NCBI GenBank assembly: GCA_030691865.1
Contig: JAUYDL010000029.1
Location: 4,721 to 68,720 of the forward strand
Direction: 5' to 3'
Length of the DNA: 64,000 nucleotides
Source of the DNA: Candidatus Omnitrophota bacterium
GTDB lineage: Bacteria; Omnitrophota; Gorgyraeia; Gygaellales; Profunditerraquicolaceae
Under the pieces are notes generated by a model. It made no database searches. It saw nothing but the letters and a program-made list of their open reading frames with translations, and was not told the DNA's origin. The translations under genes and the position numbers were made by a program. Of the stretch, positions 1 to 4,317 are shown piece after piece (position 1 is the stretch's first letter; each line of letters opens with the position of its first letter).

Positions 1-3000
1 ATCCGTCTGCTGCTGAATAAGAAAATCATAACGTTTCTTTAGTTCATCATACTCTTCAATCGCCACCAGATTAACCGTGCCGTAGGAATCTAACTTCCTC
101 TTTAATTCGCTGATCTCTGCAGATAACGCCTCTTGGTCTAATTCTATAAGCGGCTCTGTTAAAAGGCCTAGATCAACCTTATAAGCCGAAGACATCCTCT
201 CTTTAATCGTGGTATAGCGATAATCCAAATCCTTATCCAGCATCTCTAAATCATGCAGACGGTTCTTTATCTGATCCAATTGTTTACGGTCAGCCTCAAT
301 CTTTTTTACCACCCCGGCCGCGCCGTAAGATACCTCATTATACTTAAGCTCAATTTCCTCCAGGGAAGTTTTTTTCTGCTCTATCTGGATTTGGCCTTGT
401 TTATTCGTATTCTGACATTCCGTAATTTCAACCTTTAAAATCTCCTGGCGCTCTTTGGCCTCGCTAATCTGCCGCTGGATATTTTCCAGGCTCGCCTTAT
501 CCTGCGCATAAGTTTGATCTAGGATCTTTAAAGTTGCCGCATCAGAACTAAAACGCCTATTCAGAGCTTCAATTTCAGTCTTAGTTTGGGTAATAAAAAC
601 TAAAACCTCCTCGCGTAACTTACTATTTAAAGAGATGGCATCCTCTTCTTGCACGATTGCATCCTGCCTTTGCCTCTCTTGATTATTTAAATCCAGAAGC
701 TGATTCTGGGCGCTGTCCAAATTTTGCTGGATAGCAGAAATCTCCCGCGCTACATCAGCCAGCTCCATTACAATCACATCCTCTTCTTCTTTAATTTTGT
801 CAAACTGTTCCGCAATCGCAGTGTGGTGGGATTCTTTGTTAGCCAAAGCAATCTCGTAGTTACGTAACTCCAGCTCCAGGCCCGCAGACATCTTATTTAA
901 TTCCGAAATACAGGCCTGCCGCAGCACCATTCTATTTCTTAACTCACCGAGATTCTCTTTTAGCCTGGCAATCTTTTCATTAATTTTCTGCGTATCTAAT
1001 TCAATGGGCTTAGCCTCTCCGCTTATTTTAAAAGCGGCAGTGCTCAAAGCCAGACGATCCTGTAGACTTAAAGGCAGCTGATTCTGGATCTTTACCACCA
1101 GGCCCGTTAAATTCTCATTAGGCATTTTGTCCAGAAAAATGACGGCATTTGACGACTCGCCGATACCATCATATTTGCTCTTTAATTTCTCTAAAAATTC
1201 TTTATGCGAAACTAAAGTGAGCTTTTCATTTCCCAGGTTCACAATCTCTTTATTAATTTTCTCTAAATTTAACCCCTCCTGCGCAAGGCTTGCCTTGACA
1301 TCAGAAATCCTCTGCTTAAATTCAGCTACTTGCGCTGCCGTATCCTCTAATTCCTGAGTAACTTTGGCTAAAGCCTCTTGGGTAATTACCTTATCCTCAT
1401 AAACCTTGGCCTTTTCTATCCCCAACCTCTTTTTGCGTGCCAGAAAGACCTGATGCTTGGAATTAAAATCTCCGATTTGGTTATTGGTATTAGAAATTGC
1501 GGTTTCTAAATCTAGAATTATTTTTTTACATTCAGCTATTAAGCCAAGGGAATTCTTTATACTGGCGCCCAGCTTATCAATCTCCTCTTGGCTTCCTGCC
1601 AAGCTGGCTTGCTTGACTTCTATATTCTGCTTAAGGTTAGCGTACTCGCCACGAACCTGCTGTAATTTTTCTTCATCCTGAACGAGTTTAGCGGCCGCCT
1701 GGTCAATTTGCCCCTCTAAAACCTGGTTATTCTGCATTAATTCATCAATGTGTTGCTGATTAAAATTGATGTGCTCATTATTACGTACTAAACTATTTTC
1801 CAGATTAAGCATCTGGCTGCGCGCCTCCATCATCGCTTCCCCTAAACTTTTTAGCTCTGACTGACGATTGGCAATTTTTGCCTCTTGCTGGGCAATTAAT
1901 TCTATTAAAGAAGATTCCTCTTTTCCTAAATCCTTCAATTGCCCAACAATCCCATTTTTCTCTTCCAACAAATTCTTCTTATCCAGAGTGGCTAAATCTA
2001 TCTCTTTTAATTTTAATTCTTCAAAAACTTCTTTATACCGACGCGCTTTGTTGGCCTGGCGTTCCAGGGAACCAATCTGACGTTTGACCTCCGCAACAAT
2101 ATCATTTACACGCAAGAGATTCTGCTCTGTCTCATCCAGCTTACGCGTGGTTTCTCTCTTCTGGGCTTTATACTTACTTATTCCGCTGGCTTCATCAAAA
2201 ACCACCCGGCGGTCTTCCGGCCGGGAACTTAACACCAAATCAATTTTCCCCTGGGCAATGATCGAATAACTCTCCGCCCCTACACCTGTACCTAATAACA
2301 AATCCAGGATATCCTTAAGCCGCACAGTTGCTTTATTCAACATATACTCGCTTTCCCCTGATCTAAAAAGCCTGCGGGTAATAAGCACCTCCGGATTGTT
2401 CAGATTAAAAAAACGGCTGGTATTATCAAAAGCCAGGCTTACCTCGGCCATACTTAATGGCTCCTTTTGATCCGTGCCATTAAAGATAACATCCAGCATC
2501 TCAGAGCCACGCAATGATTTTGCGGATTGTTCACCCAAGACCCAACGGATAGAATCAAAAATATTGCTATTATGCACGACAATATCCTGAGCAACAAAAT
2601 TATGGTTACCAAATATTGACAAGTCATAAACCCATTTCGGAGACTTAATTTTCTTTATTCCCACAATCTCATCCCAATAAATATCCGAATTTGCCAGGCG
2701 CTTTAAATACTCAAAAATTGCCTTTGCGGCACCGATAATCTCAGCATGTTCAGATATTATACTTAAAGCTTCAAGCAACCCCTGGCGCGAAGGCAAGCAT
2801 CTATTTTCGTAATAGCTGGCTAACTTAGGTGATAATTTTCTAAATCTTTTAACTTTAAGCCCTGATAATTTGACCAAGATCTTAAAAATAGCGTTAACCT
2901 CAGGGATAAGGTCATGATTTGGATTACTCTTGCCCTGATAACTTCTTATTTGCGCCAATTTATCTGATTTTCTCCCCACAAAACTTAGTTTAGCGGCAAG

Positions 3001-4317
3001 CCTTTTTGTATTTTCATAACCATAAATGTAAACAGAATAGTAAGCTCTCTTTGTTTTCTTCTTCGAATTTGTAGCGGCTTTCATCTTCAGCCTGATTACT
3101 GAATTAACCCCTAACCTGAGTAACAAGCTGCTTAAACCCTGCGCCAGCTCCTTGGAAGCGGTTGAATACTCAAAATATACTGCATCTTTCGTGCAAACGA
3201 ATCCATCGCCTTCAAACAAAGCAGAGATAAAACTCACTACTACATCTTCAGAGCAACCGAATAACTGAGGCGGTATGACCTTTTCTTTTGATACGCTCCC
3301 AACCTTAAAATTAAAAGCTGCCTCAAGAAATTTAGCTAGCGCCGCGGAGAAAATAATTACATCGCTGGTTCCTCCGGTTTTATAATGGAACTCTTTTGCC
3401 TCAACGCCGAATCCGGCTTTCGCGCACCAGATATATTCATCCAGGATAGCCCTCTCTTCATTAACAAACCAAGCCTGGTTACCTTTATTTGACCTTCCTT
3501 CCGCGATTAAATAGCCTAAGAATTTCGCCACCTGAGAGTTAATTTCTGAAGGAATATTTATCCTGCCGCAACTGCGGGATTTCAAGGTTTTGGCAAAATC
3601 CGGGATCTCTTCTGCCTTGCTTTCAGTAAAAATCTGCATAAAATTAGCAACATTCATTGCCTGGCCTGACAATGCGCATTTAACCGCAAGGCTACCCTTT
3701 CCATTACTGCCAACAGCATGCTTTATAATAAATTCAGCAAATTGTTCAGAATAAGGTATATAAAGCAAATCTTCAGCTCTTATACTTTTGTAAATATGCA
3801 TTAAATCAAGCTTGTTATTTGTTTGGATATTTGGTAATTGACGCGGAACAGAAATTCTTAACCCCTTGCTTAATTCTTCAGCTTTAAGCTCAACCAAACT
3901 TCCATTTTTAATCGTAAAAAACGGATGGTAATGCGTAGTGGTAACTTTTTTCCCTGAGCGAGTCTGAATCTCAAGCAAATAATCCGGTGCTTCTTTTTTT
4001 ACAAAAGCAAAAACCGGTTTTGGCTCAAGTTTAAAAGTTTCAGGATTTAAAGAAAGTACGCGGACATTCAAAGGGTTTTCAAAAGAGGTATAGCCGTCTG
4101 TATTCTTTTCAACGCGAGATGCTCTTTCAATTGTCTCTTCAACAAGCTCTCCGATTTTAACCTGCAAGCCATTATCCAAAGTAACCAGTGAATCATACTG
4201 CAGGCACTTCCCGCAGCCATTTGGGCCGACTACCGCCGTAATCCCCGGTTCAAAGTTAATGGTAGTCTTATCGCAAAATGATTTAAAACCAATAAGCTCT
4301 AATCTTTTAAAATACAT
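1..4317 (-). CDS. smc: Chromosome segregation protein SMC, precursor containing an intein. The N-terminus is at 4317 and the 3' end lies beyond window position 1.
   Basis: Manual minus-strand translation from the ATG at 4317-4315, preceded by an AGGAGG RBS, gives [37 protein letters not shown]. After the intein the extein resumes with [21 protein letters not shown]...[31 protein letters not shown] long coiled coil follows, then ...[21 protein letters not shown] at the window start. I found no stop in this frame, whose codon tops are divisible by 3. The ORF track omits it because it runs off the window edge. Confidence 0.85.
   Translation of the reverse strand, partial: [1439 protein letters not shown]
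2569..4206 (-). mobile_element. Intein of 546 aa inserted in the SMC Walker-A P-loop, carrying a two-motif LAGLIDADG homing endonuclease.
   Basis: Block A reads [22 protein letters not shown] directly after GPNGCGK. Block B reads [13 protein letters not shown]. The LAGLIDADG motifs are [13 protein letters not shown] and [12 protein letters not shown]. Block F reads [15 protein letters not shown] and block G reads DIVVHN, followed by the +1 Ser of the extein (SNIFDSIRW). I translated the full stretch codon by codon and found no stop. Confidence 0.8.

Follow-up and report, generated by a model that had tools for sequence, protein, structure and literature searches.

A LAGLIDADG-containing intein at the Walker A motif of an Omnitrophota SMC protein and its same-site relatives

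Known P-loop inteins and the SMC insert

The phosphate-binding loop (P-loop) of ATPases is a recurrent site of intein insertion, recorded for DnaB, MCM and RFC in an intein survey that also reports inteins in archaeal SMC proteins (PMC4760082). In the intein at DnaB site b, the P-loop serine doubles as a splicing residue, and the P-loop intein of RadA disrupts ATPase function (PMC6195587). We analyzed a 64,000-nucleotide stretch of DNA from a Candidatus Omnitrophota bacterium (contig JAUYDL010000029.1 of assembly GCA_030691865.1, positions 4,721 to 68,720 of the forward strand), which we call the window, and in which an smc gene carries an insert of 546 codons inside its Walker A motif. A prediction made earlier from the sequence had proposed that this insert is a LAGLIDADG intein splitting the P-loop of SMC, and we compared the locus to the described systems, to its relatives and to intein-free homologs.

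The SMC intein resembles the P-loop inteins of DnaB site b (M. smegmatis DnaBi1), MCM site a, RFC-S site a and P. horikoshii RadA in lying inside the GxxxxGK(S/T) motif (PMC4760082, PMC6195587). In each of these inteins, as in the SMC intein, the Walker A Ser or Thr is the +1 nucleophile, the host is a DNA-transaction ATPase, and the precursor is expected to be ATPase-dead before splicing. The SMC host has an ABC-type (ATP-binding cassette) head, whereas the other P-loop intein hosts are RecA-like or AAA+. Moreover, DnaBi1 belongs to the class-3 mini-inteins and lacks an endonuclease, whereas the SMC intein is class 1, with Cys1 and a full LAGLIDADG endonuclease, and is only 23-31% identical in sequence to DnaB inteins. 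The archaeal SMC inteins of Novikova et al. 2016 share the host family, and SMC inteins are listed in that survey for archaea only (PMC4760082); in contrast, the family described here is overwhelmingly bacterial, a comparison in which the sites are matched by host family only.

The smc precursor open reading frame (ORF) lies on the minus strand (1..4317), beginning with an ATG at 4317 and running for 1439 codons without a stop, still open at window position 1; the original prediction of one uninterrupted frame held for this whole distance. The N-extein (4207..4317, minus strand) comprises 37 amino acids (aa) that end in Walker A (G31-x4-G36-K37) and align to residues 1-37 of B. subtilis Smc. 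It is followed by the intein of 546 aa, Cys1 to His545-Asn546 (2569..4206, minus strand), whose extent is supported by profiles, a structure model and Foldseek, and then by the Ser+1 codon AGC (2566..2568, minus strand), whose residue serves both as the +1 nucleophile of splicing and, in mature SMC, as the serine of Walker A (GKS). Thus, with a slash marking each boundary, the frame reads GPNGCGK / C1...H545-N546 / Ser+1. In the DNA, the N-terminal junction is ggg aag/tgc ctg, with the Cys1 codon TGC at 4206-4204, and the C-terminal junction is cat aat/agc aat, with Asn546 at 2571-2569 and Ser+1 at 2568-2566. The motifs quoted in the original prediction were all found, as was the insert at 2569-4206; they lie on the minus strand, which had been left unstated, with starts at 4227 (GPNGCGK), 4206 (CLQYDS), 3942 (TTTHYH), 3519 (LGYLIAEG), 3219 (LFEGDG), 2619 (SIFGNH) and 2586 (DIVVHN). 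No other ORF of at least 80 aa overlaps the intein region on either strand.

The placement of the insert in the SMC P-loop was borne out when we removed it in silico. The spliced head aligned to B. subtilis Smc (3zgx/5xg3) with residues 1-217 on 1-217 (E 3e-73) and no gap at the junction, and the window site reconstituted without the intein reads GGCCCAAATGGCTGCGGGAAG/AGCAATATTTTTGATTCTATC. The insertion point falls between Lys37 and the Ser of the SMC Walker A motif (GPNGCGK/S), and because the insertion separates the Walker A lysine from the serine, this serine is the +1 splicing nucleophile. The window protein, interrupted and partial as it is, matched TIGR02168 (SMC_prok_B) at 1.4e-148 and 496.7 bits, compared to a cutoff of 567, while the spliced protein of L002, the nearest intein-bearing ortholog (88% extein identity; 1083 aa), scored 866.8 bits against the same cutoff, and its sequence includes the LSGGE signature along with Walker B and the region of the H-loop. 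It is reasonable to suppose, by analogy with other P-loop inteins, that the ATPase and condensin function of the window SMC would need splicing.

The profile search proposed with the original prediction was also positive, at a level well outside what chance would give. Within Pfam, PF14890 (Intein_splicing) matched residues 10-546 of the insert at 5.2e-28 (98 bits; cutoff 35.8) and PF14528 (LAGLIDADG_3) matched at 2.4e-15 (57 bits; cutoff 22.5); within NCBIfam, TIGR01445 (intein_Nterm) matched residues 1-98 at 1.8e-17 and TIGR01443 (intein_Cterm) matched at 3.7e-4, and many models of intein-containing proteins also matched in part. The residues of a full LAGLIDADG intein are present, as predicted: Cys1, the block B TxxH, two LAGLIDADG motifs, blocks F and G, the terminal His-Asn and Ser+1. 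Among 77 aligned family members, the splicing residues C1, T91 and H94 (block B), D528 and H535 (block F), and H545 and N546 (block G) are invariant in all 77. The +1 residue is Ser, Thr or Cys at all junctions by the search pattern, and was Ser in every case examined.

Fold of the intein and the proposed splicing and homing route

To the sequence profiles we added an AlphaFold2 (AF2) model of the intein, built from 25 homologs (predicted local distance difference test, pLDDT, 91.7; predicted template modelling score, pTM, 0.91). The best Foldseek match of this model in the PDB was TliVMA (7qss; E 9e-28, template modelling (TM) score 0.79 normalised to the target), followed by PI-TkoII (2cw7; 1e-26), PI-PfuI (1dq3) and PI-SceI, all of them endonuclease-containing inteins. 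In addition, I-DmoI matched the endonuclease part and mini-inteins matched the Hint part. The endonuclease core itself gave fold matches to I-DmoI and I-Tsp061I at E 1e-7 to 1e-4. Thus, the SMC intein shares with TliVMA, PI-TkoII, PI-PfuI and PI-SceI (1vde) an architecture of a split Hint domain, a two-motif LAGLIDADG endonuclease and accessory DNA-binding regions (Foldseek E 1e-28 to 1e-11, probability 1.0), but at 13-22% sequence identity and in a different host, theirs being V-ATPase, DNA polymerase and ribonucleotide reductase (RNR). Residues 126-220 and 411-505 of the SMC intein are not superposable in detail on these four structures (TM 0.4-0.67 normalised to the query).

Read from its N terminus, the intein begins with the Hint N-lobe (residues 1-125; 3832..4206, minus strand), which is the part matched by TIGR01445, has beta-strands across residues 7-121 in the model, and contains block A with Cys1 (4206-4168, minus strand) and block B, TTTHYHPF with Thr91 and His94 (3942-3919, minus strand). 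A mostly helical accessory region follows (residues 126-220; 3547..3831, minus strand, assigned from the model); it is the least conserved stretch of the intein in binned family alignments, with a ratio of nonsynonymous to synonymous divergence (dN/dS) of 0.28-0.43, and, to judge from PI-SceI and PI-PfuI, may serve in DNA recognition. The LAGLIDADG endonuclease core (residues 221-410; 2977..3546, minus strand; PF14528) has, over residues 224-406 of the model, the pseudo-dimeric order alpha-beta-beta-alpha-beta-beta-alpha, in which the two LAGLIDADG helices are residues 224-236 and 320-334. Motif 1, LGYLIAE236G, ends the first of these with Glu236 (3519-3490, minus strand), and motif 2, LFEGDGFV, contains Asp334 in LFEGD334G (3219-3196, minus strand). 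A second accessory domain (residues 411-505; 2692..2976, minus strand), with model helices at 413-505, has a dN/dS of 0.03-0.19, and the Hint C-lobe (residues 506-546; 2569..2691, minus strand; TIGR01443) completes the intein with block F, containing Asp528 and His535 (2634-2596, minus strand), and block G, DIVVHN with His545 and Asn546 (2586-2569, minus strand). Every sequence and fold feature looked for was found, and the insert is confirmed at this level as a canonical intein of class 1 that carries a homing endonuclease with two LAGLIDADG motifs.

From these residues we predict the following route. A precursor of SMC and intein of ~1630 aa would be translated first. Cys1 would then carry out an N-S acyl shift at Lys37-Cys1, helped by Thr91 and His94 of block B and by Asp528 of block F, and the resulting thioester would be attacked by Ser+1, the Walker A serine, in a trans-esterification. 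Cyclisation of Asn546, with the help of His545, would free the intein, and an O-N shift would leave a native GKS P-loop in an SMC competent to bind ATP. The freed intein of ~62 kDa would act as a site-specific LAGLIDADG endonuclease that cuts intein-less smc across the insertion point, and recombinational repair would copy the intein gene into the cut allele, a process that would keep the element circulating in Omnitrophota and, now and then, carry it beyond them. This is the textbook route of splicing and homing, and no new mechanism is revealed by it. Given the residues that are retained, we consider the element very probably splicing-competent, and we consider it rather likely, with less assurance, that the endonuclease is currently active.

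A same-site family, its mobility and rival explanations

The original prediction had called inteins in bacterial SMC rare, and this did not survive a wider search. We scanned one genome per species (GTDB representatives) with LAGLIDADG-motif patterns, which gave 286 confirmed relatives, and fetched the best 80 of these. Both junctions were at the identical GxxxxGK/C...HN/SN site in 76 of the 80 fetched loci; the other 4 are cut by contig ends. Because this same-site family is found in at least 76 species-level genomes, the claim of rarity fails for uncultivated phyla. A protein search with the intein among 5.8 billion proteins yielded 28 strong matches, each combining SMC_N/AAA_23 with intein domains; the best are 55-57% identical, and most come from Candidatus Omnitrophota metagenome-assembled genomes (MAGs) and carry generic names. 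Similarly, a phmmer search against 1.84 billion representatives at 50% identity found 235 clusters at E<=1e-30, and among the best 150 of these, 49 have the intein starting at residue 35-46, right after the N-terminal Walker A. The element had also been described as large: its 546 aa are as stated, yet this is an ordinary length for a family that spans 540-568 aa, and is close to that of PI-TkoII (537 aa).

By their labels, 38 of the 80 loci are Omnitrophota or Omnitrophica, 15 are Acidobacteriota (mostly Pyrinomonadaceae/Blastocatellia), and 13 bear the automated label 'uncultured Planctomycetales/Planctomycetia'. The remainder are Rokuibacteriota/Methylomirabilia (3), Patescibacteria/Saccharibacteria (3), Armatimonadota (2, including the complete chromosome OZ244065), Archaea (2; Aenigmatarchaeota and 'uncultured archaeon'), Anaerolineae of the Chloroflexota (1) and unlabelled (3). 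Homologs of the intein are found in archaeal SMCs as well (L072, L075 and P0018). The allele family has spread to other phyla and also to DPANN archaea, and bacterial SMC joins the DNA-transaction ATPases whose P-loop is an intein hotspot. We found no paper on bacterial SMC inteins in the literature, and the bacterial SMC allele family seems to be undescribed in the searchable literature, although its sequences are already public. SMC itself is easily missed in these genomes because the records say 'LAGLIDADG family homing endonuclease' or 'AAA family ATPase, partial'. A scan of IMG/VR for a viral carrier returned only distant partial relatives (at most 34% identity, mostly endonuclease plus C-lobe) and no phage vector.

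Intein-free alleles occur close to the window gene. In the protein database, the SMC proteins most similar to it are intein-free (P0046 at 85-86% identity; P0047-P0051 at 75-79%), and in intein-free homologs the block is missing exactly, to the codon. Two such loci, L081 and L082, are syntenic with the window (ETF-beta, ETF-alpha plus Fer4, HTH_17 and smc, where ETF is electron transfer flavoprotein), with extein identities to the window SMC of 85% and 78%; the synonymous divergence (dS) of the L081 extein is 1.5. These empty alleles bear on the possibility that the insert is non-functional, being an insertion specific to this SMC lineage or else a dead one that has turned smc into a pseudogene. 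The end of the gene does lie beyond the window, and the identity of the intein was established by computation only. We nevertheless rejected both forms of this idea, in view of the full set of defining intein residues, the fold and the 1439-codon open frame, and consider it extremely improbable: the extein has a dN/dS of 0.05-0.14 against relatives, complete precursor ORFs are present in 55 of the 76 genomes with both junctions (51 of the 55 with the C-terminal SGGE/Q signature), and the block is absent with codon precision from close relatives.

We next compared the divergence of intein and extein between the window and its intein-bearing relatives. In L002, the closest, the two have diverged alike (88% aa identity for each; dS 0.45 for the extein and 0.32 for the intein). 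In L003, the extein is 76% identical with saturated dS, while the intein is 87% identical with a dS of 0.74. The discordance is strongest in L001, where the extein is only 54% identical in aa and 59% in nucleotides (nt), with saturated dS, but the intein is 90.5% identical in aa and 92% in nt, with a dS of 0.23, and its first 300 nt match the window at 98-99% identity. At the level of sequence comparison, so similar an intein in so divergent an smc is the hallmark of an intein that has moved horizontally. Intein identity correlates with extein identity over 64 sequences (r = 0.79), with discordant outliers in L001 versus the window, L002 and L003, and in L011 versus L014; archaeal L072 and Patescibacteria L046 are likewise discordant with bacteria, with 42-50% identity in the intein and 21-30% in the extein.

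These data could also be read to mean that splicing is intact but the endonuclease is dead, such that the element is vertically inherited at a late stage of the homing cycle. The broad correlation of intein and extein identities and the parallel divergence of L002 are in keeping with this view, as is the composition of the intein, which is not anomalous: it bears no compositional sign of recent acquisition (GC content 0.387 and GC at third codon positions 0.361, compared to 0.399±0.033 and 0.389±0.047 for the other window genes). However, both acidic residues of the LAGLIDADG core are kept, the near-identical intein of L001 sits in a very divergent smc, close relatives have empty sites, and occupied and empty sites differ in the codon family of Ser+1, as described below. 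Moreover, the low dN/dS in the Hint N-lobe (0.07-0.11) and in the endonuclease core (0.07-0.20) indicates that the splicing and endonuclease activities are under purifying selection. We thus regard a dead endonuclease as unlikely. Homing, in which the endonuclease copies the intein into empty smc alleles, looks from these comparisons to be ongoing, with the allele family circulating among uncultivated Omnitrophota.

The Ser+1 codon is AGY in 70 of 77 occupied sites, and in 29 of 29 within the close clade, whereas 7 of 9 empty Omnitrophota sites (L081, L082, L108-L114) have TCN (Fisher p 2e-5 and 3e-6, uncorrected for phylogeny). The natural empty sites of the two syntenic loci illustrate both forms, ...GGTAAA/TCAAAT... 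in L081 and ...GGAAAA/AGCAAT... in L082. This split is compatible with a target preference of the endonuclease, or immunity to it, and also with co-conversion of the flank. We found no strict co-conversion in flanking third positions across the 77 loci (Lys-1 is AAA in 48 and AAG in 29), and the Ser+1 codon family is the sole flank feature in which occupied sites differ from empty ones. Matched alleles with and without the intein should be useful for studying homing-site specificity.

We also considered that the intein might have been co-opted as a redox-gated switch. Cys35 of the N-extein lies at position -3 to the intein, which creates a CxxC-like C-G-K-C across the junction, and a disulfide between Cys35 and Cys1 could block the first splicing step and keep SMC inactive until conditions become reducing. 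The idea has precedents, since a disulfide trap between an N-extein Cys and Cys1 has been published for the P. abyssi MoaA intein (PMC10663303) and redox-controlled splicing for the P-loop intein DnaBi1 (PMC6195587); moreover, Cys is found at -3 in the window and in 68 of the 77 intein-bearing loci, and the intein site is kept across phyla. However, intein-free Omnitrophota SMCs have Cys at -3 just as often (104 of 109), and because of this equal frequency it is a trait of the host that was not selected along with the intein. In addition, 9 of the 77 family members keep the intein with Ser, Thr, Val or Ala at -3, and active mobility with empty sites in close relatives suits a selfish element rather than a switch. 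Co-option as a redox switch is thus quite improbable, and the specific proposal that SMC/condensin activation is gated by the C35-G-K-C1 trap in these bacteria of mostly anoxic habitats is very doubtful, even though, if true, it would explain retention at the same site in at least six phyla and both prokaryotic domains. In either case, the family is a naturally occurring collection of Cys1/Ser+1 inteins that have a CxxC motif built into the junction.

Taken as a whole, the explanation that this is a class-1 homing intein that splices out of the smc Walker A motif and spreads by its endonuclease is one we hold to be highly probable, although several points weigh against it. The C-terminal head of the window SMC is outside the window, and the integrity of the gene was read for 1439 codons only. 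The genome may conceivably encode, at another locus, a second SMC-like paralog that lacks the intein. The L001 contig comes from a co-assembled MAG, such that a chimeric assembly is a remote alternative to intein transfer. The invariance of E236 and D334, which holds in the 77-member alignment and in an independently retrieved protein set, is in the 80 loci partly ascertainment, because the patterns of the genome scan were both LAGLIDADG motifs. Finally, splicing, DNA cleavage and the ATPase-dead state of the precursor are what we infer; the identity, boundaries and fold of the intein, the exact restoration of the host, the allelic family with its occupied and empty sites, the discordant divergence and the purifying selection were obtained by computation.

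The host SMC, its hinge and its gene neighborhood

The C-extein spans 856 codons within the window (1..2568, minus strand) and includes the remaining N-terminal head, the coiled coil, a reduced hinge at ~994-1173 and the returning coiled coil. Because the gene runs off the window edge, the C-terminal ~190-200 aa of SMC are outside it. To judge from L001-L003, the signature motif and Walker B lie in this missing part; in these orthologs the C-terminal head, with signature, Walker B and D-loop, is present (LLSGGEK, FCILDEIDAALD).

The hinge of this SMC clade is unusual. We found no match to PF06470 (SMC hinge) in the window protein (E<=0.1) or in spliced L002 (E<=1), and at ~994-1173 (minus strand) approximately 150 positions of TIGR02168 are replaced by ~45-60 residues. 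The reduced hinge is common to L001-L014 and P0046-P0076, and in its AF2 model (pLDDT 81.9) the segment joining the coiled-coil arms has no more than two beta-strands and one short helix; a fold search of the PDB with this model gave no significant match (best E 0.6). A normal hinge is kept in the intein-bearing SMCs L022, L031, L048, L071, L069, L072 and L075, and is also found in other Omnitrophota SMCs at ~40% identity. The reduced hinge may be of greater novelty than the intein.

Directly upstream of smc is an ORF of 61 aa of the HTH_17 type (4331..4516, minus strand), which is excisionase- or MerR-like. An AGGAGG Shine-Dalgarno sequence at 4332-4327, ahead of the smc ATG, overlaps the stop codon of this ORF. 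Among Omnitrophota relatives, an HTH_17-type ORF adjoins smc whether or not the intein is present, and the corresponding ORFs of L081, L082, L108-L110, L112 and L114 carry a PF12728 annotation. The database gene call P0025 has an HTH_17 domain (PF12728), the SMC head and intein-splicing domains in one protein, and because it joins these domains, HTH_17 and smc may have been called as one gene. In three intein-free loci (L110, L111 and L113), the gene calls divide smc into two parts that adjoin or overlap (734+324, 688+387 and 875+187 aa), and these are either frameshifted or split genes or the result of MAG sequence errors.

The neighbors of smc are chromosomal housekeeping genes, all on the minus strand (ETF alpha and beta, acyl-CoA dehydrogenase, GlmU-like, TPI, PGK, GAPDH, Fmt and PriA), and a glycan-synthesis cluster, also on the minus strand, is present in the window. 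Of 59 ORFs of at least 120 aa, almost all are on the minus strand, and every one of the few plus-strand exceptions is contained in, or overlaps, a longer ORF of the minus strand; because nearly all ORFs are on the minus strand, the 64 kb are co-directional. The GC skew is negative at 1-8000, the stretch profiled, and an Rfam scan of the whole window found no RNA family at the gathering score. The PriA homolog (19460-21304, minus strand; 614 aa) matches the Pfam 3'BD, Cys-rich zinc ribbon and C-terminal domains at E<=1e-6 but no helicase-core family at that threshold, which may reflect the E-value cut-off. Two ORFs (37458-39518, 686 aa, and 50489-52870, 793 aa, both minus strand) have no Pfam match at E<=1e-6. 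Both lie inside the cluster, which is of a glycan or lipopolysaccharide (LPS) type and is rich in B12-binding radical S-adenosylmethionine (SAM) enzymes (41051-43850 and 47661-49334), with aminotransferases and a NeuB homolog. RhuM-family genes often mark mobile or defence islands, and one such 'virulence protein' gene (17359-18393, minus strand; PF13310, 2.8e-111) lies between paired GalT/HIT-like genes and fmt.

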